From: Rikenellaceae bacterium
GTDB lineage: Bacteria; Bacteroidota; Bacteroidia; Bacteroidales; Rikenellaceae
DNA: 64,000 nt
Direction of reading: 5' to 3'
NCBI GenBank assembly: GCA_015060015.1
Contig: SUZG01000001.1
Location: forward strand, 23,605-87,604
Shown here piece by piece: positions 25,492 to 63,866 of this stretch. A program made the translations under genes and the position numbers. Below the pieces are notes generated by a model. It had not been told where the DNA came from. It ran no database searches and saw only the letters and a program-made list of their open reading frames with translations. Numbering within the stretch: the first letter of the stretch is position 1; the number at the start of each line of letters is the position of its first letter.

Positions 25492-27210
25492 ATGGCAAAA
25501 CTTACGCGACAGGAGTACAACAACCTATTCGGCCCAACCGTAGGCGACAAGATTCGTCTGGGCGACACCGACCTCTATGTGGAGATAGAACGCGATATGC
25601 GTCGCTACGGCGACGAGGTGGTCTATGGCGGTGGCAAGACGCTGCGTGACGGTATGGGTCTGGCCAACACTGTAACATCGGAGCAGGGAGCTCTCGACAT
25701 AGTAATAACGAATGTGACAATCATAGATGCCATATTGGGTGTGGTGAAGGCCGACGTAGGCATAAAGGATGGCCGCATAGCGGGCATAGGCAAGGCGGGC
25801 AACCCCAACATTATGGACGGCGTGTCGCCCGAACTCGTCACGGGAGCCGCCACCGACGCCATATCGGGTGAGCATCTCATACTCACCGCCGGCGGTATCG
25901 ACTCACACGTTCACTTCGTATCGCCACAGCAGGCATACACAGCCCTGAGCAACGGCATAACGACACTCATAGGTGGCGGCATAGGCCCCTCGGACGGCAC
26001 AAACGGAACGACCATAACATCGGGACGCTGGTCCACCGAGCAGATGCTGCTCTCGGTGGAGGAGCTGCCTGTGAATGTGGGTCTGCTGGGCAAGGGTAAC
26101 TGCTCGGCGAAGCCTGCGATAAAGGAGCAGATTGAGGCGGGCGTATGCGGATTGAAGATTCACGAGGACTGGGGCTCAACACCCGAAGCCATACGCACAG
26201 CCCTGTCGGTGGCCGACAAGTATAATGTGCAGGTGGCCATACACACCGACACACTGAACGAGGCGGGATATGTCGAAGACACCATAGCCGCCATAGATGG
26301 CCGCACGATACACACCTACCACACCGAGGGTGCCGGCGGAGGACACGCCCCCGACCTGATGAAGGTGGCGTCGATGCCCTTCGTGCTGCCCTCATCGACA
26401 AACCCCACACTGCCCTTCGGCATAAACTCACAGGCCGAGTTGTTTGATATGATTATGGTGTGTCACAACCTCAACCCCAACATCCCGTCGGATGTAGCCT
26501 TTGCCGAGAGCCGCGTAAGGCCCGAGACACAGGCGGCAGAGAATGTGCTGCACGATTTGGGCGTATTGTCGATGGTGTCGTCCGACTCGCAGGCGATGGG
26601 CCGAGTGGGCGAGTCGTATATGCGTACATTCCAGATGGCTTCGTTTATGAAGAGTGCCTGCGGCCGCTTGGAGGAGGACTCGGCCGAGAACGACAACTTC
26701 CGCGTGCTGCGATACATAGCCAAGATAACGATCAACCCCGCCATAACATTCGGCGTGGCGGACTACATAGGCTCGGTCGAGAAGGGCAAGGTTGCCGACC
26801 TTGTGCTGTGGGAGCCGCAGTTCTTCGGTGCGAAGCCCAAGATGGTAATCAAGGGTGGCGTGATAAACTGGGCGAACATGGGCGATGCCAATGCCTCACT
26901 GCCCACGCCACAGCCCTGCCTCTATCGCCCGATGTTCGGTGCTTTTGGCGGTGCTATGCCGGCGAGCTGCATATCGTTTGTGTCGCAGGCGGCCTGCCGG
27001 AACGGCATTGCCGAACATTTGGGTCTGCGTCGTCAGGTGCTGCCCGTACGCCGCACACGCCAGCTCTCGAAGGGCGATATGGTACGCAACGGAGCAACGC
27101 CACGCATAGATGTCAATCCGGAGAGTTTCGAGGTGATGGTAAATAACATACACGCCTACGTGAAGCCGGCCGAGAGATTTCCGCTGTCGCAACTCTATTG
27201 GTTTGGGTAG
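25492..27210 (+). CDS. ureC: Urease subunit alpha
   Basis: [13 protein letters not shown]; Ni ligands DSHVH, LKIHED (carbamylated Lys), [13 protein letters not shown], flap MVCHNL and SSDSQAMGR. Confidence 0.98.
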
Positions 27211-46903: not shown

Positions 46904-48220
46904 ATGAACAAGATAAAGATAATTATTGCTCGTGAGTTCAACGAGCATGTGAGAAACAAGACCTTCATCATCACCACGATACTGATGCCGGTGCTGATGA
47001 TTTTGATGATGGCGACACCAACGCTTATAATGCTCTTCGCAACGGGCGATGAGAAGGAGTTGCTGGTGATTGACGAGAGTGGTCTGATGGCCGAGAAGCT
47101 GGAGAATACCGACGAACTGCGTTTCACGCCCACCGACCTCTCCTTGTCGGAGGCTCGTGCCAACACCGAGGTCTTCGGCGTGCTGTGGATAGGTCAGAAC
47201 ATTGTCGATGAGCCTACGCAGGCACAGCTCTACACCAACTCTTCGTCATCAATGTCGATGGAGGAGAACATATCGTCACAGATTGAGAAGGTGGTTGAGA
47301 AGGAACGCCTGAGCCGTTACAATATCGACAACCTTGAACAGATAATGAAGGATGTGGAGGCCAATGTGGTGCTGACGACCTATCGCAATGACCAGACCTC
47401 GGAGTCAGGCGAAGCCGAGGAGGCTACATCGTCGGGAGTCGCTTATATGCTGGGTCTGGTGCTGGGTATGATTCTCTATATGTTCCTCATCATCTACGGC
47501 TCGATGGTGCTTGCCTCGGTCATCGAGGAGAAGAGCAGCCGCGTGCTGGATGTGCTGGTGTCAAGTGTCAGCCCCTTCCAGCTCCTGATGGGTAAGATTC
47601 TGGGTGTGGCATCGGTTGCCATTACGCAGGTAGCTATATGGGCTGTGCTGGTGTGCGGTATAGGTGGTGCTGTGCTGCCGGCCCTTATGCCCGACGACAT
47701 TATGCAGACCGTGGAGGCTGTGCAGGCTGGTCAGATGACCACCATTGAGGCCGACATCGACGCCGATATGCTCTCGGCACTCTCGTTTGCCACCAATACG
47801 GGCAAGTTGGTGATGCTGTTCGTCTATCTGGTGTTGTTCATTCTGGGTGGCTTCCTGCTCTACTCGGCTATGTTTGCCGCCGTAGGCTCGGCTGTCGATA
47901 CGCAACAGGATGCTTCACAGTTGCAGACACCCATTATGATACCCATTATATTGGCTATCTTTATGGCTATGGCCGTCTTCAATGACCCCAACTCGTCGCT
48001 GGCCTTCTGGGGCTCGATTATCCCCTTCACATCGCCTGTGGTGATGATGGCACGCATACCTTTCGATATCCCCACATGGCAAATATGGTTCTCGCTGGCG
48101 ATACTCTATGCTTCGGTCGTAGGCGTGACGTGGGTGGCCGGCAAGGTCTATCGCGTGGGTATCTTTATGCACGGCAAGAAGCCTTCGTTCAAGGAGTTGT
48201 GGCAGTGGATTAAGCAGTAG
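46904..48220 (+). CDS. ABC-2 type transporter permease (NatB/YhaP-like)
   Basis: IIAREFNEHVR.K.FII, VIEEKSSRVLDVL, LLMGKILG and IPFTSPVVMMARI. ATG at 46904. Confidence 0.92.
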   Translation: MNKIKIIIAREFNEHVRNKTFIITTILMPVLMILMMATPTLIMLFATGDEKELLVIDESGLMAEKLENTDELRFTPTDLSLSEARANTEVFGVLWIGQNIVDEPTQAQLYTNSSSSMSMEENISSQIEKVVEKERLSRYNIDNLEQIMKDVEANVVLTTYRNDQTSESGEAEEATSSGVAYMLGLVLGMILYMFLIIYGSMVLASVIEEKSSRVLDVLVSSVSPFQLLMGKILGVASVAITQVAIWAVLVCGIGGAVLPALMPDDIMQTVEAVQAGQMTTIEADIDADMLSALSFATNTGKLVMLFVYLVLFILGGFLLYSAMFAAVGSAVDTQQDASQLQTPIMIPIILAIFMAMAVFNDPNSSLAFWGSIIPFTSPVVMMARIPFDIPTWQIWFSLAILYASVVGVTWVAGKVYRVGIFMHGKKPSFKELWQWIKQ

Positions 48221-48226
48221 CGTAAG

Positions 48227-49252
48227 ATGCTTCATTTCGAAAATGACTATATGGAGGGTGCTCACCCTCTGATTCTGGAACGACTCGCCGCAACCAATAT
48301 GCAGCAGTGCGTAGGCTACGGCTGTGACGAGGTGTGCGAGTCGGCACGAAGTAAGATTCTCTCGGCGTGCGGCCTTACCGATGGTGAGGTACACTTTCTG
48401 GTGGGCGGCACGCAGACCAACGCTACGGTCATTCGAGCCTTGCTACGCCCCTACGAGGGTGTCATCGCTGCCGATACGGGCCACATAGCCCTGCATGAGG
48501 CGGGTGCTATCGAGGCCGGAGGACACAAGGTGCTGACCATACCGCACCGCAACGGCAAGCTCTCGGCCGAGGCTGTCGATGCCTATATCGAGGCGTTCCG
48601 CCGTGACGAGGCGTGGGACCATATGGTGTGGCCGGGGATGGTCTATATCTCGCAACCCACCGAGTATGGCACGATATACTCGCTGGCGGAGTTGGAGGCT
48701 CTCTCGGCAGTGTGTCGCAAGTGGGAGATACCCCTCTTTGCCGATGGTGCGAGGTTGGGCTATGGTCTTATGGCGGAGGGCAGTGATGTGACCTTGAAGG
48801 ATTTGGCTCGCCTGTGCGATGTGTTTTACATCGGTGGCACGAAGGTCGGGGCAATGTTCGGCGAGGCGGTGGTTATTCCACGAAAGGGCTTCATCCCGCA
48901 CTTCTTCACCACCATCAAGCAGAGTGGAGCCCTGCTGGCCAAGGGTCGTATGCTGGGCGTGCAGTTTGATGTGCTGTTCACCGACGATTTATATTTCAAG
49001 ATTGCCCGCCACGCCATAGAGCAGGCCACACGACTGCGTGAGGCTCTGGTGGCGAAGGGTTTTCAGACATACTATTCCTCGCCGACAAATCAGATATTCT
49101 TTGTGCTCGATGAGGAGCAGTTGCAGCATCTGCGTCGCGTAACATCGTTCAGCGAGTGGGAGCATCTCGACGACGGGCGTACGGTTGTGCGTCTTGCCAC
49201 CAGCTGGGCCACCCGCCCCGAGGATGTCGAGAGGCTGATAGCGGAGTTGTAA
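48227..49252 (+). CDS. ltaE: Low-specificity L-threonine aldolase (PLP)
   Basis: FENDYMEGAHP, FLVGGTQTN, HEAGAIE, DGARLGY and IGGTK (PLP lysine). Confidence 0.88.
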   Translation: MLHFENDYMEGAHPLILERLAATNMQQCVGYGCDEVCESARSKILSACGLTDGEVHFLVGGTQTNATVIRALLRPYEGVIAADTGHIALHEAGAIEAGGHKVLTIPHRNGKLSAEAVDAYIEAFRRDEAWDHMVWPGMVYISQPTEYGTIYSLAELEALSAVCRKWEIPLFADGARLGYGLMAEGSDVTLKDLARLCDVFYIGGTKVGAMFGEAVVIPRKGFIPHFFTTIKQSGALLAKGRMLGVQFDVLFTDDLYFKIARHAIEQATRLREALVAKGFQTYYSSPTNQIFFVLDEEQLQHLRRVTSFSEWEHLDDGRTVVRLATSWATRPEDVERLIAEL

Positions 49253-49267
49253 ACAAATGAATAGATA

Positions 49268-49300
49268 GAAAAAGAGCAAGGAAAAACCTTGCTCTTTTTT
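49268..49300. terminator. Bidirectional terminator
   Basis: AAAGAGCAAGG-aaaaa-CCTTGCTCTTT. Confidence 0.8.
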
Positions 49301-49333
49301 ATTCGGTATATAGTTTGGTGTTTTAAGCACCGG

Positions 49334-49390
49334 CTTATCTCTTATCTTTGCTCTTTTCTCTTTGCTCTTTTCTCTCTCCTATCCTCTTAT
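49334..49390. repeat. Pyrimidine-rich 7-bp tandem repeat
   Basis: cttatct cttatct ttgctct tttctct ttgctct tttctct... Confidence 0.65.
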
Positions 49391-49960
49391 CCTCACCACC
49401 TGCTCGCGAGGCATCTCGTAGCCCTTGGGTAGTGTTATGCGTAGCAGGTGCTTGGTGCTGACGCCACGACCCTCTTTAAGTGCCGGTTGCCAGCGTGGAG
49501 CCTCCGCCATAGCCTTCTCTATGCGACGCAGCAGACGCTTGTCCGAGGCCTCCAGCACATCGGTCGTTGCCACCGAGCCATCCTCGGCCAGCGTGAACGA
49601 TATAATCACGCGTGCCACGCCATCCATCACACCCCACTTCACCCGCTCGGCGATGTAGGCACTGTAATTGAGCTCCTCGCCATCGACCACGAAGCGTGCC
49701 GGCGTGTCGTAACGCAGCGTAATCAGCACCACGCCATTTGACGCCTCGACGCCATACTCGGCAATGGTCTGCTCGTCGATTGTGAGCAGCTGGTTATCAA
49801 CGATATCCTCGGGAGCAATCTTACGCACCTGCTCCTCCGACATTCTCTCGCCATTTACGATGTAAAGGGGCGTACGGCTGCGACTTTGTGCCGTAGCGGA
49901 CAGAGTAACCACGCCGAGACACATCGCAAGAATTATGCGGCTTAAAATCGAAATTTTCAT
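49379..49960 (-). CDS. Secreted protein: TBDR plug-like segment fused to TonB C-terminal domain
   Basis: Signal peptide (ATA-Q); PLYIVNG...IAPEDI...YGVEASNGVVLIT; then RVIISFTLAEDGSV...APRWQPA..EGRGV. Confidence 0.75.
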   Translation of the reverse strand: MKISILSRIILAMCLGVVTLSATAQSRSRTPLYIVNGERMSEEQVRKIAPEDIVDNQLLTIDEQTIAEYGVEASNGVVLITLRYDTPARFVVDGEELNYSAYIAERVKWGVMDGVARVIISFTLAEDGSVATTDVLEASDKRLLRRIEKAMAEAPRWQPALKEGRGVSTKHLLRITLPKGYEMPREQVVRIRG

Positions 49961-50046
49961 AGTGCAAATATAATGCTTCCCCCATAAAACGCAAAGAACA
50001 CCATTGTTTATTATCCTCGCAGACGATTTATTATCCTCGCAGAAAC

Positions 50047-54600: not shown

Positions 54601-54804
54601 AGCGGGGGCCTGCAATACGAAATCACCATCCACATTAGTTGTAACACCGATATTAGTGCCTTCAACGAATACGGTAGCACCTACGACAGGAGCACCAGCT
54701 GAATCGACAACCGTACCGGTCACTTTCTGATTCTGAGCCATTGCCATAGCAACCACGCCCAGAACAGCTACGATAGAAAGTACAATTTTCCTAACCATAA
54801 GCAT
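51619..54804 (-). CDS. SusC/RagA family TonB-dependent transporter (left pair)
   Basis: CarboxypepD_reg-like N-terminus, GQPGTDASILIRG, INPLDIESVVVSKDA..ALYGARAANGV, LSWEKNKQ and PQARTFTFGLTLNL. Confidence 0.95.
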   Translation of the reverse strand: MLMVRKIVLSIVAVLGVVAMAMAQNQKVTGTVVDSAGAPVVGATVFVEGTNIGVTTNVDGDFVLQAPANGTLLVSFIGYEAQRIEVAGKTSFNVVLKENLQAIDEVVVQTFGEVKKKDMTGSVAAVTAKDLQKMTVSTVTKALEGAVPGIQSYSTTGQPGTDASILIRGVGSINGNTGALIVVDGVPYSSSLTTINPLDIESVVVSKDAAANALYGARAANGVVFVTTKKGARNQKANITFEGKWGWNEIGVEEHHTMDPAQYIEHFYLGLYNYGLDGYGGDAARAHGLAQGNLSTMLRRYMPYSIPEGMSTPIDPTTGKIHKDAKLLYYDNYDDYLFTQQFRQEYTLSVSGGNDRVDYYVSGGFLEDPSYIIMSAFKRFSARAAVNAQVTKWMKLGTNIAYTRRDTDNPGFGGAANTGNAFLWTAWQSPLVPYYARDPQGNIILDENGNKVYENGMGTTTSVYGPGLDIFNSMNSAHPYQSFTHDINNQIRDNLFANAYVDITFLKDFKFTANITLDNVYAAATYYSNNEYGTAADPSWNGIVEKVMNNYMSLNTQQMLSYHKKINKVHVVDAMIGHEFSKDEDVTVDAYKKNVFYPGIPELGNAITPLEDGSTSSTVKTAIEGYFARANYTYDDRYTVSASYRYDGTSMFKYDKWGHFWSVGASWKINNEKWMENATWVNDLRLRATYGVSGNRLSSAYPYTNLWGIGELNGQPTISQSTIGNRNLSWEKNKQVDVGVDFRLWDRVYGTLDYYNRRTHDLIWSRPTPSSTGLSSRLENVGVLENSGFEFDVTVDLIKTKNVYWNISINGAMSQNKLIDFPAELGNPALGGNYVSGAFLRGEGKSYYNLYLFKYAGVNPENGNEQFWKQIKDENGNVIGDELTENYAEASQYEIGDAMPDIVGGIRTTFQWKGFDLTVAAAYQLGGLQWDAASANLYEVWRPGFAVSDDLAGNTWTPENPNAEYPRVIYNGVWDFGSSRCDALYRKASYFNLKNVNVGYTLPKKWTSKIGLQSLRVFFNADNLCFITAHDGFDPRAGYTGTAFVNFPQARTFTFGLTLNL

Positions 54805-54855
54805 TAATTTTTGTAAGTTTGTAAACTTTGTGTATTTACCTTTTTAATAAAAAAA
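54759..54855 (-). repeat. Left arm of 97-bp perfect inverted repeat (5' UTR + first 15 codons of left susC)
   Basis: Reverse complement matches 56763-56859 base for base. Confidence 0.95.
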
Positions 54856-55040
54856 CACAACACTGACCCTATGCTGCTACAAGCCTTCCGAAAAGATAAA
54901 AATTAGTGGCGTAGAGGCGGTTTCTATTACTAAATGCACCAGCGATTATTAATGGTAAATATCACAAAAACAACCGGTTATAATCGCAAATAGCTTATTG
55001 TACGTCAACGTGCGATTACTAACTACAAATCATTACTACT

Positions 55041-56291
55041 ATGAAAAATTGTTTTAGAATTACGTTTTATCTCAAACAAAATTCCCCTTTGTCTGACGGA
55101 ACGTGTCCCATCATGTGTCGTATATCTATTGCGGGAGAGAAATGCGTTTTAGCAACCCACTTATCGCTGAAAAAGAAGCTTAAATGGGTAGTATCGAAAC
55201 AACAGGTGGCAGGCAGAAGCGATGAGGCCTGCCGAATAAACAAGTTACTGGATAAAGTACGCTACGGGCTCTATGAGGCATATATAGATGTATTGAAAGG
55301 TTCGGAAAATCCTTCGCCGCAAGCTGTTCGCAGTCGTTTCTTGGGCGAGACGAGAGAACAAATGGGGTTAGTGGCATTTTTTCGGCATCACAACAATGAA
55401 TTTAAGCGTATGGTTGGCATATCTCGCAGCGAGAATACTTTGCATAAATATCAATATGTATGCAATCACTTGGCGGCGTTTATAGAAAAGCAAAAAGCGA
55501 CTCCCGACATACCTATATATAATATAGGATACGATTTTATCTGCGATTTTCATCGCTATCTGCTCAAGGAGGTAGGTTGCAGCACCAATACAGTGTGGAT
55601 TTATATGACGGCTTTGAAGCGTATTCTTCACATAGCGATAGGTCAGGGTCTGCTTTCAACAAACCCATTTTCGGGCTACCACCTACCCTTTCGGCAGCAG
55701 CACAGAAACTTCTTGATGCGTGAGGAGTTGCAACGGCTAACCAAACTGCATCCCGACACCCCCATACAACGTATTGTGTTGGATGCCTTCCTCTTCGGAT
55801 GCTTTACAGGGCTATCCTATTCCGATATAAAACGCTTCACGATGGATAATGTGATTTTTAGTAACGGGCAGATGTCCATCACCATTCATCGAACAAAGAC
55901 TTTGACTCCAGTCGAGATGCCATTGCTCAGCCTCCCCTCATCGATAGTGCAAAATTACGGATGCTCATCCTCTGTGCCACTATTCAAACTCCCCTCAAAC
56001 TACTATTGCAATAGGGTGTTGAGGCAACTATTGCCAATGGTGGGCATAACACGTCGCATAACATTCCACTCGGCTCGCCACACCTTTGCAACTACGATTG
56101 CACTCTCCAACGGCATCCCCTTGGAGGTGGTGAGTGCTATGTTGGGACATAGATCCATAAAAACAACCCAGATTTATGCCCGTGTACAACAATCAACCAT
56201 CCACCAGGTCCTGCAACGGGTGTCAGGCGAGATAAATACCTACTACTGCGAGGGTTTGCAGCCACCACAACGACGCGAGATACGGATATAA
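55041..56291 (+). CDS. Bacteroidota site-specific tyrosine recombinase (Arm-DNA-binding + SAM-like + catalytic domains); putative DNA invertase
   Basis: ITFYLK...CPIMCRISI arm domain, SENTLHKY SAM domain, FGCFTGLSYSD, RTKT, FHSARHTFATT and MLGHRSIKTTQIYA. Confidence 0.92.
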   Translation: MKNCFRITFYLKQNSPLSDGTCPIMCRISIAGEKCVLATHLSLKKKLKWVVSKQQVAGRSDEACRINKLLDKVRYGLYEAYIDVLKGSENPSPQAVRSRFLGETREQMGLVAFFRHHNNEFKRMVGISRSENTLHKYQYVCNHLAAFIEKQKATPDIPIYNIGYDFICDFHRYLLKEVGCSTNTVWIYMTALKRILHIAIGQGLLSTNPFSGYHLPFRQQHRNFLMREELQRLTKLHPDTPIQRIVLDAFLFGCFTGLSYSDIKRFTMDNVIFSNGQMSITIHRTKTLTPVEMPLLSLPSSIVQNYGCSSSVPLFKLPSNYYCNRVLRQLLPMVGITRRITFHSARHTFATTIALSNGIPLEVVSAMLGHRSIKTTQIYARVQQSTIHQVLQRVSGEINTYYCEGLQPPQRREIRI

Positions 56292-56722
56292 CATAGCCAA
56301 AACGAGGGTTTTCTCACTAACAAAACTAAAAAACAGGGTGCCAACTCTCGCAAAACATAACATTGGTTTGCATATATATTCTCCAAAATGGAATTTTTAT
56401 CGCCTTTGGAAGATAAAGAGAATCTTGCGTGCCACAACACCTTCAAAAAATAAATAAAAAAGGGATAAAGAAGCCTATCACACGAGTAGAAAAGTATAGA
56501 ATTTGTCATTTTTTGGCTATAAATTGATATTTTTACTGCCCAAATTGGCACAATTTATAACTTAAATGACTTATTGCTGTGAGATTTTTTAAGGGCTGAC
56601 AAGAAAATGCTTACACTTTTTACGTTTTTCAACATTTCTGATTAAAAACAATACGACAAAGTGCCTATTATATCAAAAAGTGTTATTTATTACAAATTAT
56701 TATTAATTTAATGTTAATTTTT

Positions 56723-56754
56723 TTTGCTTGTTATAAATATAAAGGTTATCTTTG
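56723..56754 (+). promoter_or_regulatory. Consensus Bacteroidota promoter (-33 TTTG 56723-56726, 20-bp spacer, -7 TATCTTTG 56747-56754) driving the right susC/susD
   Basis: Both boxes at canonical spacing, immediately inside the right inverted repeat. Confidence 0.8.
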
Positions 56755-56762
56755 CGAATGTA

Positions 56763-56859
56763 TTTTTTTATTAAAAAGGTAAATACACAAAGTTTACAAA
56801 CTTACAAAAATTAATGCTTATGGTTAGGAAAATTGTACTTTCTATCGTAGCTGTTCTGG
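56763..56859 (+). repeat. Right arm of 97-bp perfect inverted repeat (5' UTR + first 15 codons of right susC)
   Basis: TTTTTTTATTAAAAAGGTAAATACACAAAGTTTACAAACTTACAAAAATTAATGCTTATGGTTAGGAAAATTGTACTTTCTATCGTAGCTGTTCTGG. Confidence 0.95.
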
Positions 56860-59800
56860 CAGTGAGCTTCGCAGCCCTTGCACAGAACAAGCAAGTGAGT
56901 GGTACGGTAACTAATTCAGACGGTTTGGCTGTCGCTGGTGCAACTGTTATCGTTGAGGGCACAACAAACGGAGTTATTACCGACACTAATGGTGCATTTA
57001 ATTTGTCTGCACCCGCAAACGGTACACTCGTAGTTTCTTTCCTCGGTTATGAGGAGGAGTCTATTCCCGTTGCAGGCAAGACAAGCATCAACGTAGTTTT
57101 GAAGACTGCCTCTGAGAAGCTCGACGAGGTTACAGTCGTTGCTTTCGGCACAAAGCGTAAGCAGGATATCGTAGGTTCTGTGGCAACTGTTAAGGAGGGT
57201 CTTATCAGCAACTCACAGGCTACATCAGTATCTGCTGCTTTGGAGGGTGCCGTTGCAGGTTTGCAGGTCTTCACATCATCAGGTCAGCCCGGTTCTGACT
57301 CATCAATCCTCTTGCGTGGTGTTGGTTCTTTGGATGGTAGCAACAGTGCTTTGATCGTTGTTGACGGTGTGCCTTTCAATGGCTCATTGTCAGACTTGAA
57401 CCCCGCCGACATCCAGTCAATCACCGTATCAAAGGACGCCGTATCTAACTCATTGTACGGTTCACGTGCTGCCGGTGGTGTGGTTATGGTAACTACAAAG
57501 CGTGGTTCTAACGACCGCATTCAGATTAACTTCACAGGTAACTGGGGTGTTACAAGCCGTGCTTACAAGGATTACGACATGGTAACCGATCCGGGTGAGT
57601 TCTATGAGTTGACATGGTATGGTATCCGTAACTCAGAGTGGGCAAAGAACGAGCATGATCTTGCTGCCGCTAATGCTTATGCAACAGATGCTTTGCTTGG
57701 TGAAGTAGGTAACTACAACGCATTCATCATTCCAGAGGGCGAGCCTTTGGTAGGTCTTGATGGTAAGTTGAACCCCAATGCTCGTGCTCGTTACAACGAC
57801 TCATTTGCTGATGCATTGTTCGATACATCATTCCGTCAGGAGTATCAGGTATCTGCAGCCGGTGGTTCAGACAAGTCTGACTACTATGTATCATTGAGCT
57901 ACCTTGATAACGACTCTTACGTTATCGGTTCAGACTTCACTCGTTTGACTACACGTGTTAATCTTAACACTCAGCTCCGTAAGTGGTTGCGCGTAGGTGC
58001 TAACCTCTCTTACTCAAAGACAGATCAGAATGGTGTTCAGGAGAGCACAAGTGCTGCTTCTAACCCATTTGACGTTGCTCGTGGCTGGGCTCCTATCTAC
58101 CCCGTACACGCATACGATGCAGAGGGTAACTTGAAGTACAACGTTGACGGTACTCCTATGTACGATGCTGGTACAGGTCAGACTGACGGTACTATTTCTC
58201 GTCCTACTGCAACCAACCAGAACGTTGTTTGCTCTATGTTGGAGGATGTTCGTAACGCTGAGTCACACAACCTTGCTACTCGCTTGTTCGCAGAGATTAA
58301 GTTCCTGAAGGACTTCACTTTCACTGCTAACTACGCTTACGACTACTCTCACTCTTTCCAGACTGTTTACTATACTCCTACTATCGGTGATGGTCAGTCA
58401 TTCCAGGGTCGTAGTACAAAGTATTCAGGTTCAGGTACTACTACCAACTTCAACCAGATTTTGGCTTACAACAAGATCGTTGGCGAGCACAATATATCTG
58501 CAAAGATTGGTCACGAGTACTATGTATATAAGGGTAGAGGTTTCGAGGGTCAGAAGACTCGTTTCTTTGATCCTATGAACCACGAGCTTATCAATGGTGG
58601 TCAGATGGAGTATATCACATCTTCTACCTCACACCACAACATCGAGGGTTACTTCGCTATGGCAGACTACAACTATGGTAGCAAGTACTATTTGTCAGCT
58701 GCTTATCGTCGTGACGGTACATCTCGTTTCTTGCAGCGTTGGGGTAACTTCTGGTCAGTAGGTGCTGGCTGGCGAATCTCAAAGGAGAAGTGGATGGAGA
58801 ACGCAACGTGGGTTAACGACTTGAAGATCCGTGCATCTTATGGTACACAGGGTAATGAGAATGGTAACCTGGGTTACACTCCTTATCAGGACTTGTGGTC
58901 AGTAACCTGGGATGGTTCACAGCTCGCATACTCTCCTGCATTCTACGGTAACCCCGATTTGACTTGGGAGAAGCAGGCTACTGTTGACGCAGGTATCGAC
59001 TTCCGTTTGTGGAATCGCGTATCAGGTTCTATTGAGTACTACTACCGTAAGACCGATGATATGCTCTTCCAGGTTCCGAAGTCAATCGCTTCAGGTCGTC
59101 CTTACAACTGGGAGAACCTCGGTGCTATGTCAAACCAGGGTGTTGAGTTCGAGGTAACTGTTGATTTGGTTAAGACTCGCAAGGTTAACTGGTCTGTAAC
59201 TTTGGTAGGTGCTCACAACACTAACAAGTTGCTCACTCTTCCCGAGGAGAATCGTGCAGATGGTATCGTAGCTGGTCAGTTCAAGCGTATGGAGGGTAAG
59301 AGTATCTATGAGTACTACACTTACCGCTATGCAGGTATGAACGAGCAAGGTCAGCCTCAGTGGCACGGCTTCCAGCGTGATGATGAGGGTGAGTATGTTC
59401 TCGACGAGGCAGGTAACAAGATCCCTGCAATCTCTACTAACTACTCTTACGCTGAGAAGGAGTACATTGGCAAGGTTGCTACTCCCGATTTGACTGGTGG
59501 TTTGAGCACTACATTCAAGTGGAACGGTATCGATGTTAACATCGCAACTGCATTCCAGATTGGTGGTTGGGCATATGACTCTTCTTATGTTGGTGAATTG
59601 AGCCAATCATTCTATGTTGGTCACCACCGCGATATGTGGAAGACTTTCAACCCCGAGACTATGGAGGGTAAGTATCCTATCTGGAACGCTAACGATTCTG
59701 TTAACACCTATACTAAGGCATCTGATGCACACCTTATCAGTGCTTCTTACTTCAGCTTGCGTAACGTAACTATCGGTTACTCATTCCCCAAGAAGTGGAT

Positions 59801-59972
59801 GCAGAAGTTGGGTATCGGTGGTATCCGTGTATATGTAACAGGAGATAACCTCGCTTTGTGGTCTAAGCGTCAGGGATTTGACCCACGTGTATCTGTAAGC
59901 GGTGGAAACAGTGGTTTCAGTGGTTATGCTCCTTTGCGTGTAATCTCTGGTGGTATTAACCTTACATTCTAA
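56814..59972 (+). CDS. SusC/RagA family TonB-dependent transporter (right pair)
   Basis: GQPGSDSSILLRG, LNPADIQSITVSKDA..SLYGSRAAGGV, LTWEKQ and APLRVISGGINLTF. Confidence 0.95.
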   Translation: MLMVRKIVLSIVAVLAVSFAALAQNKQVSGTVTNSDGLAVAGATVIVEGTTNGVITDTNGAFNLSAPANGTLVVSFLGYEEESIPVAGKTSINVVLKTASEKLDEVTVVAFGTKRKQDIVGSVATVKEGLISNSQATSVSAALEGAVAGLQVFTSSGQPGSDSSILLRGVGSLDGSNSALIVVDGVPFNGSLSDLNPADIQSITVSKDAVSNSLYGSRAAGGVVMVTTKRGSNDRIQINFTGNWGVTSRAYKDYDMVTDPGEFYELTWYGIRNSEWAKNEHDLAAANAYATDALLGEVGNYNAFIIPEGEPLVGLDGKLNPNARARYNDSFADALFDTSFRQEYQVSAAGGSDKSDYYVSLSYLDNDSYVIGSDFTRLTTRVNLNTQLRKWLRVGANLSYSKTDQNGVQESTSAASNPFDVARGWAPIYPVHAYDAEGNLKYNVDGTPMYDAGTGQTDGTISRPTATNQNVVCSMLEDVRNAESHNLATRLFAEIKFLKDFTFTANYAYDYSHSFQTVYYTPTIGDGQSFQGRSTKYSGSGTTTNFNQILAYNKIVGEHNISAKIGHEYYVYKGRGFEGQKTRFFDPMNHELINGGQMEYITSSTSHHNIEGYFAMADYNYGSKYYLSAAYRRDGTSRFLQRWGNFWSVGAGWRISKEKWMENATWVNDLKIRASYGTQGNENGNLGYTPYQDLWSVTWDGSQLAYSPAFYGNPDLTWEKQATVDAGIDFRLWNRVSGSIEYYYRKTDDMLFQVPKSIASGRPYNWENLGAMSNQGVEFEVTVDLVKTRKVNWSVTLVGAHNTNKLLTLPEENRADGIVAGQFKRMEGKSIYEYYTYRYAGMNEQGQPQWHGFQRDDEGEYVLDEAGNKIPAISTNYSYAEKEYIGKVATPDLTGGLSTTFKWNGIDVNIATAFQIGGWAYDSSYVGELSQSFYVGHHRDMWKTFNPETMEGKYPIWNANDSVNTYTKASDAHLISASYFSLRNVTIGYSFPKKWMQKLGIGGIRVYVTGDNLALWSKRQGFDPRVSVSGGNSGFSGYAPLRVISGGINLTF

Positions 59973-59997
59973 TTAACAGTAACCTTAAAAACAGATA

Positions 59998-61611
59998 ATG
60001 CTTATGAAAAAGATATTTTTAATCTTGGCGGCAGGTGTTGCAGTAACACTTACGTCTTGTCTTAAGGACGCAGAGGTTACAGCTTACTTGACTCCGGATT
60101 CAAAGAACGAGATCGCATCTGCAGATCCCGGTAAGATTTTTGATGCCGCTGTAGCCGGTATCTATACAGACATCCAAAGTTATGTTTATTCTAACCAGCA
60201 GCACAACAACTTTGGTCAGAAGAGTTTTGACTACCTTTCATCACTGTTGGGTAACGACTTGATTATGACAGGCCGTTTCGGTATGAGTTTGTATCACTAT
60301 CAGTTGTCTTCTTGGTCAGACACCCAGTATTGGTTTGTTGAGAACCGTTGGAGAGAGCACTACAACCATATTTCAAACGCAAACTCTATCCTTGGCTCTA
60401 TCTCAGCTGATGAGACCAATCCTGAGGTTTTGAAGTATAAGGCTTATGCACAGACTGCTCGTGGTTATGCATACCTGCACCTCTCTTACCTCTTTGGTGT
60501 ACCTTACTATATGGGTGCCGAGGGTACTGCTTGGGGTATGAACACCAAGTACTCTGGTTCTAACGCCGATGCTCCTTGTGTACCTATCATCAAGGAGGAT
60601 ACTCAGGGTGACCAGCCTCGTGCAACTGTAGGTCAGGTATTTGAGCTTATCGTTAGCGATTTGACAGCTGCTTATGAGTTCTTCGATGCTAATGGTATGC
60701 TTATGACAGCAACTCCTACCGACTTTGATGGTTTGGTAGCAGCTAACTACTTGATGCGTGCTCATATGATTATGCACAACTGGACTGAGGCCGAGCAGTA
60801 TGCAAAGATTATCGTTGATACAGCTCCTATAGCATCTGCTGCTGATTTGATGCAGGGCTTTAGCGATATCTCTCTTCCTAACGTCATCTTTGGTTGCGAT
60901 ATTACTGCCGATAACACTACCACCTATATGTCATACTTCTCACAGATGGATATGTTCGGTGATGGTTATGCAGGTATTGGTGTATGGCGTGCAGCTGATG
61001 CTCGTTTGATGTCTAACATCCCTACAACCGATATCCGTCGTGACTGGTTCGTATGTCCTGATAACCACGCCAAGTTGAGTGCAGAGTTGGGCTTGTACCC
61101 AATTCCGTACTACACAGAGGGTCCATCACCTGCTAACTTCCCTATGTATCAGGCTTGTAAGTTCATTGGTGCAGGTCGTGCTAATGTTGTTGACGGTTAT
61201 GGCGATGGCTGGCACCTCGGTGACTACATCTACTTGCGTTCAGAGGAGGCACACTATTGCTTGGCTGAGATCTATGCTCACCAGAACAACTTGGATGGTG
61301 CTATCAAGGTATTGGAGGATCTTACCAAGATTCGTAACGCAGAGTACGCTTATGCAGGTGCGAAGACAAAGGCAGATGTTATCTCTGAGATTATCCTTCA
61401 GAAGCGTATCGAGTTCTGGGGTGAGGGTCTTGAGCATATCGACAACCGTCGTTTGAACATCCCTGTTACTCGTAACTACGAGGGTAGCAACCACCTTGCT
61501 GCTTGTGCTTACAATATTGGTCAGGAGGATCCACGTTTCGTATATATGATTCCTATCGCCGAGATCGAGGCTAACTCAATGATCGATGAGGAGGATCAGA
61601 ATATGCACTAG
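59998..61611 (+). CDS. RagB/SusD family lipoprotein (right pair)
   Basis: Lipobox TLTS-C, AQTARGYAYLHL, YLRSEEAHYCLAE and KRIEFWGEG. Confidence 0.93.
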   Translation: MLMKKIFLILAAGVAVTLTSCLKDAEVTAYLTPDSKNEIASADPGKIFDAAVAGIYTDIQSYVYSNQQHNNFGQKSFDYLSSLLGNDLIMTGRFGMSLYHYQLSSWSDTQYWFVENRWREHYNHISNANSILGSISADETNPEVLKYKAYAQTARGYAYLHLSYLFGVPYYMGAEGTAWGMNTKYSGSNADAPCVPIIKEDTQGDQPRATVGQVFELIVSDLTAAYEFFDANGMLMTATPTDFDGLVAANYLMRAHMIMHNWTEAEQYAKIIVDTAPIASAADLMQGFSDISLPNVIFGCDITADNTTTYMSYFSQMDMFGDGYAGIGVWRAADARLMSNIPTTDIRRDWFVCPDNHAKLSAELGLYPIPYYTEGPSPANFPMYQACKFIGAGRANVVDGYGDGWHLGDYIYLRSEEAHYCLAEIYAHQNNLDGAIKVLEDLTKIRNAEYAYAGAKTKADVISEIILQKRIEFWGEGLEHIDNRRLNIPVTRNYEGSNHLAACAYNIGQEDPRFVYMIPIAEIEANSMIDEEDQNMH

Positions 61612-61633
61612 GATTAAATCCTAATACATCTTC

Positions 61634-61667
61634 AAGAGTATCGCCTGCGGGCGGTACTCTTTTTTTT
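61634..61667 (+). terminator. Terminator of the right susC/susD operon
   Basis: AAGAGTATCGCC-tgcg-GGCGGTACTCTT + T-run. Confidence 0.85.
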
Positions 61668-61829
61668 GTGCATCGGGATTATGAACGGATGCGTTTTGCA
61701 ACAGATTGAAATATATGGCCATTACGACGAGGAGTAGAACAAAATGTTCTTTTTACTATATTTTTTGATACTGTATTGTAGATTTTGACACAAAAATATT
61801 ATATTTGTGTTACGAAAAACTTTTGTTGG

Positions 61830-63866
61830 ATGAAAAGAGAGAAACAAATTTTGCCAATCGTCGCACAGGACGAGTGGCTACAACCTGTCGCTGACCGCAT
61901 TGAGGATAGGCACAACCGCTACAAGGCCCGCATGACAGACATCGAGTCGCAGGCCGGCTCGATAGTCGATTATGCCAACGGACACCACTTCTACGGCTGG
62001 CAATGGGACGACACATTGCAGGGCTGGTGGTTCCGCGAGTGGCTGCCCGAAGCCTACGATGTATTCATCTTCGGCGACTTCAACTCATGGCAACGCACAC
62101 AGCTACGCCTCGACAAGGGCGAGAATGGCGTGTGGAGCATCTTCCTGCCCGAAGCGATGTATGGCCATCTGTTGCAGCACGGCTCACTCTACAAGCTGCA
62201 TATTCACGGCAAGAACGGCTGGCACGACCGCATACCCGCCTACGCGAAGCGTGTGGTGCAGGACGAGGCCACGAAGAACTATACGGCCCAATTCTGGAAT
62301 GAGAAGCCCTACGAGTGGCATGACGAGGAGTTCGACATCGCGAATGTGGGCGAGCTGCTCATATACGAGGCTCACGTCGGTATGGCACAGGAGAAGGAGG
62401 GTGTCGGCACCTACAACGAGTTCACCGACATCGTGCTGCCCCGCATCAAGGCTGCCGGCTACAACGCCGTACAGCTTATGGCCATAGCCGAGCACCCCTA
62501 CTACGGCTCGTTTGGCTATCACGTCGCCAACTTCTTTGCCCCCTCGTCACGCTTTGGTACGCCCGAGGAGCTGAAACACCTCATAGACACAGCTCACTCG
62601 ATGGGTATAGCAGTGATTATGGACCTGGTACACGCCCACTATGTGAAGAACCTCAACGAGGGTATCGCCTCGCTGGATGGCTCCGACCACCACTACTCAA
62701 AGGCCGGCGATGCGGGCTATCAGAAGTATTGGGACTCGATGATTTTCGACTACGGCAAGGGTGGCGTGGAGCATTTCCTTCTGTCAAATGTGAAATACTG
62801 GTTGGAGGAGTATCACTTCGACGGCTACCGCTTTGACGGCGTAACCTCTATGCTCTATTACCACCGAGGATATATCGACTTCGATGCTCGCGAGAAGTTC
62901 TTTGACGAGGGTGTCGATCTGGACGCTGTGACCTACCTCACGCTGGCAAATCATCTGGTACACGAGCTGAAACCTACGGCGGTGACCATCGCCGAGGATG
63001 TGAGTGGTATGCCGGGCAGCTGCTCGCCGATAAAGGATGGCGGTATGGGCTTCGACTATCGTTTGGGTATGGCTATACCCGACTTCTGGATTAAGATGCT
63101 GAAGGATACGCCCGACGAGGATTGGAATATCTGGGAGATGTGGAGTGTGCTGACAAACCGCCTGCCGAGTGTCCGCACGGTGGCCTATGCCGAGTCGCAC
63201 GACCAGGCTTTAGTGGGCGACAAGACCATTGCGTTCCGCCTGCTGGACAAGCTGATGTACGACTCGATGGACCGCAAGACGGAGAGTATGATAGTCGATA
63301 GAGGTATGGCTCTGCACAAGATGATACGCCTGATAACCATCACTACGGGCGGCGAGGCCTACCTCAACTTTATGGGTAACGAGTTCGGCCACCCCGAGTG
63401 GATTGACTTCCCTCGCGAGGGTAACGGCTGGTCATACTCGCACGCACGCCGTCAGTGGTCGCTTGCCGACAACGAGGAGCTGCGTTACCAGTATCTCGCC
63501 GAGTTTGACCGAGCAATGATTGCTCTGGTGCGTAACACCCACCTGCTCTCGGACGGCTACCCCTACAACCTGCTTATGGACGAGCAGAACAAGACTATGG
63601 TCTATTCGCATCGCGACCTTATATTTATCCTCAACTGGCACCCCACCGCCTCGATACCCAACTACGAGCTGCCTGTGGGCGAGCCGGGCAAGTATGTGTC
63701 GATACTCACCACCGAGGAGGCACGCTTCGGCGGCCTGCAACGACAGCAGGTGGGCGAGGAGTTCTTCACCTTCAACTTCGAGTGTGAGGATGGCTGCGTG
63801 CAGCCGCGACTGCAAATCTATAACACCTCGCGTTCGGCTCTCGTGCTGAAAAAGATTGCCGAGTAG
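61830..63866 (+). CDS. glgB: 1,4-alpha-glucan branching enzyme (GH13)
   Basis: FREWLPEA, IYEAHVGMAQE, HPYYGSFGYHV, MDLVHAH, FDGYRFDGVTSM, IAEDVSG, YAESHDQA and LNFMGNEFGHPEWIDFPR; -7 box TATATTTG at 61800-61807 supports ATG 61830. Confidence 0.94.
   Translation: MKREKQILPIVAQDEWLQPVADRIEDRHNRYKARMTDIESQAGSIVDYANGHHFYGWQWDDTLQGWWFREWLPEAYDVFIFGDFNSWQRTQLRLDKGENGVWSIFLPEAMYGHLLQHGSLYKLHIHGKNGWHDRIPAYAKRVVQDEATKNYTAQFWNEKPYEWHDEEFDIANVGELLIYEAHVGMAQEKEGVGTYNEFTDIVLPRIKAAGYNAVQLMAIAEHPYYGSFGYHVANFFAPSSRFGTPEELKHLIDTAHSMGIAVIMDLVHAHYVKNLNEGIASLDGSDHHYSKAGDAGYQKYWDSMIFDYGKGGVEHFLLSNVKYWLEEYHFDGYRFDGVTSMLYYHRGYIDFDAREKFFDEGVDLDAVTYLTLANHLVHELKPTAVTIAEDVSGMPGSCSPIKDGGMGFDYRLGMAIPDFWIKMLKDTPDEDWNIWEMWSVLTNRLPSVRTVAYAESHDQALVGDKTIAFRLLDKLMYDSMDRKTESMIVDRGMALHKMIRLITITTGGEAYLNFMGNEFGHPEWIDFPREGNGWSYSHARRQWSLADNEELRYQYLAEFDRAMIALVRNTHLLSDGYPYNLLMDEQNKTMVYSHRDLIFILNWHPTASIPNYELPVGEPGKYVSILTTEEARFGGLQRQQVGEEFFTFNFECEDGCVQPRLQIYNTSRSALVLKKIAE

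Follow-up and report, generated by a model that had tools for sequence, protein, structure and literature searches.

What is the role of a site-specific recombinase gene lodged between two divergently transcribed operons, each of which codes for a complete SusC-like transporter and its SusD-like partner, when the two susC genes begin with one and the same sequence? This question is raised by a locus in a 64-kb stretch of genomic DNA from a Rikenellaceae bacterium (64,000 nucleotides of contig SUZG01000001.1, assembly GCA_015060015.1), which we refer to in its entirety as the window and in which positions are counted from the first nucleotide. Based on the inverted repeat formed by the two susC 5' ends, the gene content between them, the position of a promoter, the HxxR, H and Y motifs of the recombinase, the inversion of homologous cassettes within a short core and one-sided RNA coverage in a closely related strain, we consider it likely that the locus is a site-specific inversion switch, in which a cassette carrying a promoter and a recombinase gene toggles between two complete divergent SusC/SusD operons. 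From these observations we further infer that the window copy itself flips, that its own recombinase acts on it, where exactly the strands are exchanged, and what the cell would gain from the switch.

The 5' ends of the two susC genes form an exact inverted repeat of 97 bp (54759-54855 and 56763-56859), the arms of which are perfect reverse complements in the window sequence and can be extended to 106 nt at 97% identity (54754-54859 and 56759-56864). Each arm comprises 51 nt of 5' untranslated region (UTR) together with the first 15 codons and one further base (MLMVRKIVLSIVAVL) of its susC gene. Within a spacing of 6 kb it is the sole substantial inverted repeat of the window, and a 51-nt piece of it occurs in two exact copies as against 0.00 expected from 100 shuffles. 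The arms enclose only the gene for a 416-aa tyrosine recombinase and a spacer with 20-35% G+C, and no Rfam family matched the switch region, including this AT-rich spacer. A preliminary description of the locus had reported identical 97-bp arms covering the 5' UTR and the first 15 codons of two divergent susC genes, with only a tyrosine recombinase gene and an AT-rich stretch between them; the coordinates prove exact, and the content in open reading frames (ORFs) and domains is as stated. It had also raised the possibility that the 97-bp identity was an artefact of assembly. We rule this out because independent assemblies, namely three from the European Nucleotide Archive (ENA) and two contigs from the Joint Genome Institute (JGI), are ~99.99-100% identical to the window here, and because in six sequencing runs (X1-X6) the short contig made up of the repeat itself has about twice the depth of its flanks (e.g. 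82 vs 39). In the same runs the invertible segment appears as a separate contig of 1967 nt.

The left and right SusC proteins share 41% identity and the corresponding SusD proteins 27%. Both susC ORFs are complete, as had been claimed, each with its own copy of the identical start and signal peptide and each a full-length match to the SusC/RagA family model; the left protein displays Plug, beta-barrel and CarboxypepD_reg domains. This full-length match of both ORFs indicates that the SusC copy currently devoid of a promoter (see below) is being maintained. Moreover, the left pair is full-length and 100% conserved across the assemblies, and its susC has an orthologue (77% identical) in a further Alistipes genome, L048, which immediately follows a promoter and core of the same type. 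Together, the full length, the perfect conservation and the promoter-linked orthologue lend indirect support to the use of the left pair.

Housekeeping promoters of Bacteroidota have the elements TTTG at -33 and TAnnTTTG at -7. In a pattern scan, the sole full match to this consensus in the region (TTTG-N20-TATCTTTG) was found inside the segment, ending 8 nt before the right arm, and no TTTG-N18-22-TAnnTTTG was detected within 200 nt upstream of the left susC; the promoter is thus called as a sequence match to the TTTG/TAnnTTTG consensus. It reads through the right arm and would therefore serve the right susC/susD pair, leaving the left pair promoterless in the window orientation. This is the arrangement expected of an invertible promoter, with a promoter between the repeats that faces out through one arm and none on the other side, and it supports the earlier claim that the promoter and the recombinase gene both ride on the segment. 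Across the whole window TAnnTTTG occurs 46 times as against 24.8 expected, a count reached in 0 of 100 shuffles, and this excess agrees with the promoter usage of Bacteroidota; a scan for sigma-70 promoters and terminators, which is unsuited to Bacteroidota, remained at chance level. Each arm also carries a match to the -7 consensus, TAAGTTTG, which points inwards (54814-54821 on the plus strand and 56797-56804 on the minus strand). The left-arm copy faces the recombinase gene 220 nt away and comes without a matching -33 element; that TAAGTTTG might act as an orientation-independent promoter of the recombinase gene is a speculative suggestion based on the motif itself.

RNA data come from four metatranscriptomes (X49-X52) containing a strain ~96% identical to the window. 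In these, continuous RNA contigs extend from ~56819 to ~61630, spanning the right susC and susD genes, after which coverage stops; the gene for a CBM48/alpha-amylase-family protein further downstream (61785-63866) is not co-transcribed with the pair. The depth over the right pair is ~27-110 in X49-X51 and ~1-13 in the low-depth X52, and it rises from 0 in the bin ending at 56767 to 27-42 in the next bin (4 in X52). Coverage of the recombinase gene and the spacer is 0 in all four, and the left pair is essentially without RNA, showing patchy hits that are ~7% divergent and probably belong to other organisms. Such one-sided coverage would be expected of an 'ON right, OFF left' state, provided that the RNA strain possesses the left pair and has the window orientation. 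The either/or logic put forward in the preliminary description, in place of a simple ON/OFF, is supported by the single promoter beside one arm and by one-sided RNA, although this RNA derives from the ~96%-identical strain only.

The recombinase contains, all above the Pfam cut-offs, an N-terminal arm-DNA-binding domain (Arm-DNA-bind_5), a SAM-like core-binding domain (Phage_int_SAM_5) and a catalytic domain (Phage_integrase). Its ORF is intact, and the stretches FHSARH, LGH and QIY align with HVLRH, LGH and QIY of XerA (PDB 5hxy), which correspond to the HxxR, H and Y catalytic motifs. The region of the first catalytic arginine, which lies outside the XerA alignment, reads FTGLSYSD, with a serine where many members of the family have an arginine; the integrase of CTnDOT presumably displays the same substitution. 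Relatives of the recombinase number in the thousands, the closest being 43-57% identical and the few named ones coming from Alistipes. No NCBIfam family (release 20) was recovered at its cut-off, and a scan of the representative-genome collection with the recombinase protein yielded no relative. Many of the homologous genes lie on k=31 contigs of 1.6-2.1 kb, which is the pattern expected of a gene bracketed by inverted repeats; the ends of one contig of this kind (L014) are 30-nt inverted copies of each other.

The layout of the locus, SusD-SusC on the minus strand, recombinase on the plus strand and SusC-SusD on the plus strand, recurs in every relative that we opened, namely in the families P0002, P0004, P0013, P0035 and P0075 (for P0075, in a complete isolate genome). 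The isolate genome GCA_900083545.1 (LT559262.1:177047-192366, locus L133) has this layout with an imperfect repeat of 73 nt. In two of the families, P0013 and P0035, both orientations of the cassette occur, the flanks remaining unchanged. In the P0013 family a comparison of two loci (L008 and L009) shows flanks that are 99.7-99.96% identical and stand in opposite order around the recombinase, with the central 1.8 kb collinear, i.e. inverted relative to the flanks. The breakpoint lies within a 14-bp sequence, TTTTTATATTAAAA, ~40 nt upstream of the susC start codons, and the 20 nt of UTR that follow are different in the two arms and remain attached to their respective susC. Two loci of the P0035 family (L134 and L135) present the same inversion pattern; here the susC genes have entirely different UTRs and signal peptides, and only 21 bp, ATGGACTTTTTATTTTAAAAA, are common to both sites.

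In the window the equivalent T-run/A-run motif, TTTTTTTATTAAAAA, constitutes the innermost 15 nt of each arm (56763-56777, mirrored at 54841-54855), and the two copies are identical. Because the breakpoints in the homologues fall in a 14-21-bp T-run/A-run core that they have in common with the window, we regard this core as the probable crossover site. By analogy with these loci, crossover in the window is probably site-specific and located, within the 5' UTR, in the ~15-bp core that forms the inner end of each arm; the earlier suggestion that it could occur anywhere in the repeat is revised accordingly, the breakpoints of the homologues being confined to the core. The preliminary description had further emphasized that the repeat is long and extends into the codons of the signal peptide. 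This is real, with 15 codons covered, but as homologues invert with 14-21 bp shared, neither the length of the repeat nor its reach into the signal peptide is needed for recombination, and the remaining 82 bp of identity in UTR and signal peptide probably reflect a shared 5' end and homogenisation between the arms.

The same organization emerges from a comparison of ten loci with two arms (the window, L007, L008, L009, L041, L042, L051, L058, L064 and L096). In all of these except L064 the identity between the arms starts at the same T-run/A-run motif, and in none of the ten is a promoter-like motif present on both arms. The window and six of the nine other loci have a full promoter match on one arm, ending 7-9 nt before the T-run/A-run motif; L007 and L058 are laid out alike, although with a -33 element that falls outside the strict pattern. 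The arrangement TAnnTTTG-CAGtTGTA-TTTTTAyaTTAAAA is found in 33 of 114 unique Alistipes susC upstream regions. Where enough sequence is available, nine promoter arms lie just downstream of the 3' end of the recombinase gene and 12 non-promoter arms face its 5' end.

In mechanistic terms, the recombinase would pair the two ~15-bp T-run/A-run cores at the inner repeat edges, in the 5' UTRs, and invert the cassette. Each susC would retain its own UTR, start codon and signal peptide, and only the promoter and the recombinase gene would change sides, such that one cell would transcribe either the right pair, as in the window state, or the left pair. The features of the locus are collected in Table 1.

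Table 1. Coordinates of the two operons and of the proposed invertible cassette in the window
Feature	Position	Strand	Remarks
Left SusD-like lipoprotein gene, 496 aa	50107..51597	-	Pfam SusD-like_3, SusD_RagB
Left SusC-like TonB-dependent transporter gene, 1061 aa	51619..54804	-	TIGR04056 full-length, 767 bits
Left arm, exact 97-bp inverted repeat	54759..54855	-	5' UTR and codons 1-15 of left susC
Left core copy, TTTTTTTATTAAAAA read towards left susC	54841..54855		Mirror of 56763-56777
Proposed invertible segment proper, 1907 bp	54856..56762		Recombinase upstream region, recombinase gene, AT-rich spacer, promoter
Tyrosine site-specific recombinase gene, 416 aa	55041..56291	+	Pfam PF17293, PF13102, PF00589
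AT-rich non-coding spacer, ~430 bp	56292..56722		20-35% G+C
Bacteroidota-type promoter (consensus match)	56723..56754	+	-33 TTTG 56723-56726, 20-nt spacer, -7 TATCTTTG 56747-56754
Right arm, exact 97-bp inverted repeat	56763..56859	+	First 15 nt are the proposed crossover core
Right SusC-like transporter gene, 1052 aa	56814..59972	+	TIGR04056 full-length, 757 bits; joined to the promoter in the window orientation
Right SusD-like gene, 537 aa	59998..61611	+	Pfam SusD-like_3; co-transcribed with right susC

Both orientations can be followed in public sequencing runs for the P0013 locus, which was searched for by means of two loci of the genome collection that are equivalent to L008 (L019 and L110). 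Three runs (X27, X28 and X42) have one orientation. In X36 both reciprocal junctions of the other orientation are present, at depths of 10.3 and 11.6, and X25 contains the majority orientation along with a minor flipped junction, a 46-nt contig with a depth of 9.4 vs 33.7, which joins the promoter and core to the UTR of the other susC. The similarity of the arms also varies between strains: X27, X28 and X42 have 17 differing positions, and in X26 the arms are identical over 113 nt (L019:6236-6348), the ends of the 2079-nt cassette contig being perfect inverted copies of each other. This variation suggests gene conversion between the arms, which could also explain the perfect 97 bp of the window. 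A puzzling feature of X26 is that a single k=31 contig spans its 113-nt perfect inverted repeat.

Several observations weigh against a switch that is active in the window. No flipped copy of the exact locus was found: the contigs spanning it, which were retrieved by exact-protein look-ups of the recombinase and both SusC proteins, comprise the repeat-crossing assemblies L001, L128/L130 and L132 and the JGI contig L131, which reaches 26 nt beyond the repeat, and all have the window orientation, a result that covers these contigs and not 11 further similar places returned by the look-ups. A related strain (X12), in which a single-nucleotide polymorphism splits the repeat, likewise has a single configuration at a depth of ~20, and the k=31 contigs of Logan break at the 97-bp perfect repeat and cannot tell the orientations apart. 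No promoter was identified for the recombinase gene, the RNA evidence comes from a strain ~4% divergent from the window, with contig depth being a poor measure of expression, and the window recombinase shares only 43-46% identity with the enzymes of those loci for which flipping was seen (46% for P0013 and 43% for P0035). Even for P0013, the reciprocal of the minor flipped junction was not seen in X25 and the second orientation in X36 may come from another strain; here both states are observed in nature and in single samples, with switching within a clone not proven. The flip of the 1.9-kb segment proposed in the preliminary description stands as the best explanation of the locus, although inversion was not observed here, the four assemblies all being in one orientation.

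Certain signals that could have been mistaken for inversion were rejected. In X18 a joint between 54495 and 56860 on opposite strands is best explained by a paralogous susC, the signal-peptide part of which was mapped to the other arm. The loose ends around the repeat in X1-X6 are not flipped junctions, being derived from other susC genes with a conserved 5' end, and ATACATTCGCAAAGATAACC, the continuation expected after the repeat at the flipped left junction, is in none of them. No hit was obtained when a metagenome collection was scanned with 46 nt taken from the repeat, this collection evidently being without the organism, and the organism was not present in the raw-read run X45. Separately, the JGI contigs L129 (78 kb, ending at window position 54855) and L131 (186 kb, starting at 56737) stop at or just inside the repeat. 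These ends fit unresolved branching, possibly between mixed orientations (a k above 97 could cross the repeat), and are not evidence on their own.

The alternative that survives best is that the locus derives from a switch and now flips rarely or not at all, the right pair being simply expressed and the repeat being kept by gene conversion or by needs shared by susC 5' ends. It draws on the one orientation seen in four assemblies and, by extension, in the RNA, on the strain-dependent arm identity of the homologous locus, with its hint of gene conversion, and on the distribution of the susC start itself. The start ATGCTTATGGTTAGRAAARTTGTACT, coding for MLMVRKIVL (window 56814-56839 and 54779-54804), is present in 110 stretches of the species-representative genome collection (L018-L127), all of those listed being from metagenome-assembled genomes of Alistipes/Rikenellaceae with the exception of one 1.9-kb contig binned as Clostridia, and the host genomes are mostly from ruminant, other animal and human guts. 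More than 100 Alistipes susC genes share this start as a nucleotide sequence, down to the synonymous positions; most of these genes are not beside a recombinase gene (53 of the arms with enough sequence have neither promoter and core nor recombinase nearby), and part of the repeat consequently reflects a common susC 5' end. However, the recombinase ORF and its alignable HxxR, H and Y motifs are intact, both copies of the core are identical, and the left pair, although promoterless, has its full length and is 100% conserved between assemblies; furthermore, assemblies report the majority state, in which a minority of a few percent would be invisible. We therefore consider such a locked locus rather unlikely.

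A very unlikely alternative is that the segment is flipped by RecA-dependent homologous recombination over the 97 bp, with the recombinase being a bystander or having another purpose. A perfect identity of this length would suffice for such a process, and in the sap locus of Campylobacter fetus inversion does rely on RecA and long homology, without a dedicated recombinase. Yet in homologous cassettes a shared stretch of only 14 or 21 bp is enough for inversion, the breakpoints lying exactly in the conserved core, and many Alistipes loci have the recombinase gene conserved within the cassette, both of which argue against this alternative. We give hardly any credence to the idea that a small mobile element entered between two susC genes, with the recombinase as its integrase and the repeats as its ends: the recombinase does have the domain architecture of Bacteroidota integrases, its best PHROG hit is an integrase family and related genomes show modular replacement of the recombinase and one pair, but no further mobility gene lies in the segment, the repeats are formed by the susC 5' ends, the natural variation consists of in-place inversion between unchanged flanks and not of presence vs absence, and the surrounding genes are ordinary chromosomal ones.

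SusC/SusD inversion switches, one of them with a local tyrosine recombinase, have already been published (10.1101/521070; PMC9881135; PMC13064476). The novelty of such a switch was overstated earlier; DNA inversion of SusC/SusD is known in Bacteroides fragilis and B. thetaiotaomicron. A close parallel is the susC/susD 'PUL shufflon' BT1040-BT1046 of B. thetaiotaomicron, with its local tyrosine recombinase BT1041 (Porter et al. 2020; 10.1101/521070), a mutant of which is locked (10.1101/521070). As in the window, a tyrosine recombinase gene lies among alternative susC/susD operons, the recombination sites are at the susC 5' ends, and recombination picks the operon that owns the single active 5' end. 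In contrast, BT1040-BT1046 has three partners, two of them 5'-truncated, whereas the window has two complete ORFs; the exchange takes place within the coding sequence, where imperfect direct repeats surround a 7-bp site, whereas crossover in the window would by homology lie in the 5' UTR; and the exchange moves an anti-sigma contact domain, with expression requiring an extracytoplasmic function (ECF) sigma factor, whereas the window cassette carries a promoter of the housekeeping type. Unlike in BT1040-BT1046, the recombinase gene of the window would invert along with the cassette. As both ORFs are complete and the exchange would be in the UTR, the window is not a coding-sequence shufflon of the B. 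thetaiotaomicron type.

In B. fragilis, SusC/SusD inversions are under the global recombinase Tsr0667 (Nakayama-Imaohji et al. 2009, as recounted in PMC9881135 and PMC12632263). As far as these accounts go, this system resembles the window in that SusC/SusD phase variation is brought about by tyrosine-recombinase inversion, including simple promoter inversions by susC/susD, and differs in that one remote recombinase serves about a dozen loci, whereas in the window type each locus has its own enzyme. The Tsr0667 repeat motif reportedly reads AGTYYYN4GDACT; this pattern has no match in either window arm, even with one mismatch, and its count in the whole window is at chance. Moreover, a Tsr0667-type NCBIfam model was absent among the hits of the window recombinase even at E<=10, assuming that such a model is in release 20. 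With a different enzyme, a different site and local instead of global action, the window falls outside the Tsr0667 regulon.

In a domain-wide survey SusC/RagA was 8.9-fold over-represented among the targets of inversion, genes for integrases and SusD were enriched in the neighbourhood, and one SusC locus was confirmed by long reads (NZ_CP012938.1; Milman et al. 2023, PMC9881135). That class consists of inversions that alter the coding sequence, whereas the coding sequences of the window are expected to remain unchanged. Another known system is that of the invertible promoters described in 2019, in which a consensus promoter enclosed by inverted repeats changes its direction with respect to a susC/susD operon. 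These ON/OFF systems measure a few hundred bp, have short repeats and do not include the recombinase, whereas the window would be an either/or system of 1.9 kb with the recombinase inside and a 97-bp repeat. The window is consequently best described as an invertible promoter with two distinctive features, namely a target on each side, giving an either/or outcome, and a recombinase gene inside. Both features have analogues elsewhere. In the Salmonella Hin system, a serine recombinase gene and an outward promoter lie within the invertible segment and one operon is turned ON or OFF; the window is like it in having the recombinase gene inside the invertible DNA. In Campylobacter fetus sap, one promoter on an invertible segment lies between opposed homologues with conserved 5' ends, and the window is like it in combining either/or logic with shared 5' ends. 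Searches of the literature for Alistipes together with invertons or SusC retrieved no description of such an arrangement, which is not proof that there is none. What the window adds to the known SusC/SusD inversion switches is a modest architectural variation and a candidate core site, and the type is widespread in Alistipes.

The organism is an uncultured Alistipes species (family Rikenellaceae) of the animal gut; the runs containing the window are faecal and gut metagenomes, and the source samples comprise X1-X6, ERZ27248314/-326/-457 of the ENA and 3300018475/3300018493 of the JGI. The representative genomes do not include its exact species. Elsewhere the window contains ordinary chromosomal genes, including a resistance-nodulation-division (RND) efflux operon and genes for fumarase, urease, BamA and the CCA-adding enzyme. 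The urease alpha-subunit gene (Pfam Urease_alpha, Amidohydro_1) lies at 25492-27210, and the ORFs beside it may be the rest of a urease cluster.

Certain related loci depart from the two-way layout or from the gene content of the window. One contig of Alistipes MGBC143807 (CAJUMU010000002.1; L064:3045-5097 and L095:2868-2893) has three close susC 5' ends with the same UTR, two with and one without the T/A core, and may represent a three-partner shufflon rather than a two-way toggle. In Alistipes sp. RGIG216 (L036:481-8000, compared with window 47659-50016 and 56517-61670), a pair 81% identical to the right pair of the window lies beside homologues (91% nucleotide identity) of the genes flanking the left pair, namely those for a TonB_C protein and a beta-eliminating lyase; this right-type pair next to left-pair flank genes indicates that pairs have changed places relative to the chromosome. 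A further locus (L003:5522-12841, compared with window 56703-62608) is 81-88% identical to the window from 56703 on, across the promoter, the right pair (88%) and the amylase flank, while its recombinase is only 57% identical at the protein level and its left pair is different, which looks as if parts of this locus had been replaced as modules. In L007 and L058, other pairs adjoin the same amylase flank. The swapped pair of L036, the mixed locus L003 and the amylase flank with other pairs in L007 and L058 together hint at a hotspot for the replacement of SusC/SusD pairs. In light of this, we tentatively suggest, as a possibility short of an even chance, that a modular promoter and recombinase device is found throughout the genus Alistipes, with an undescribed T-run/A-run core of ~15-21 bp and an uncurated recombinase clade, that it operates at several susC/susD loci, and that it may be a hotspot for the replacement of pairs and recombinases.

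In gut Bacteroidota, SusC/SusD complexes serve as the main gates for nutrients and also rank among the major surface antigens and phage targets. The likely benefit of the proposed switch would be bet-hedging over surface-exposed transporters, whether against attack by phages or antibodies or for different nutrients. The window represents an unusually clean case, with two very different transporters, one promoter, one dedicated recombinase and a short candidate core, and this simplicity would make it a convenient system in which to ask which pressure (phage, antibody or diet) favours the alternation of SusC/SusD expression, how this clade of recombinases recognises its site, and whether the cassette could be used in Bacteroidota as a compact genetic switch with two states. 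The general picture of surface variation by DNA inversion in gut Bacteroidales is unchanged by it; rather, phase-variable SusC/SusD loci would be extended from Bacteroides to the Alistipes of livestock, poultry and human guts.

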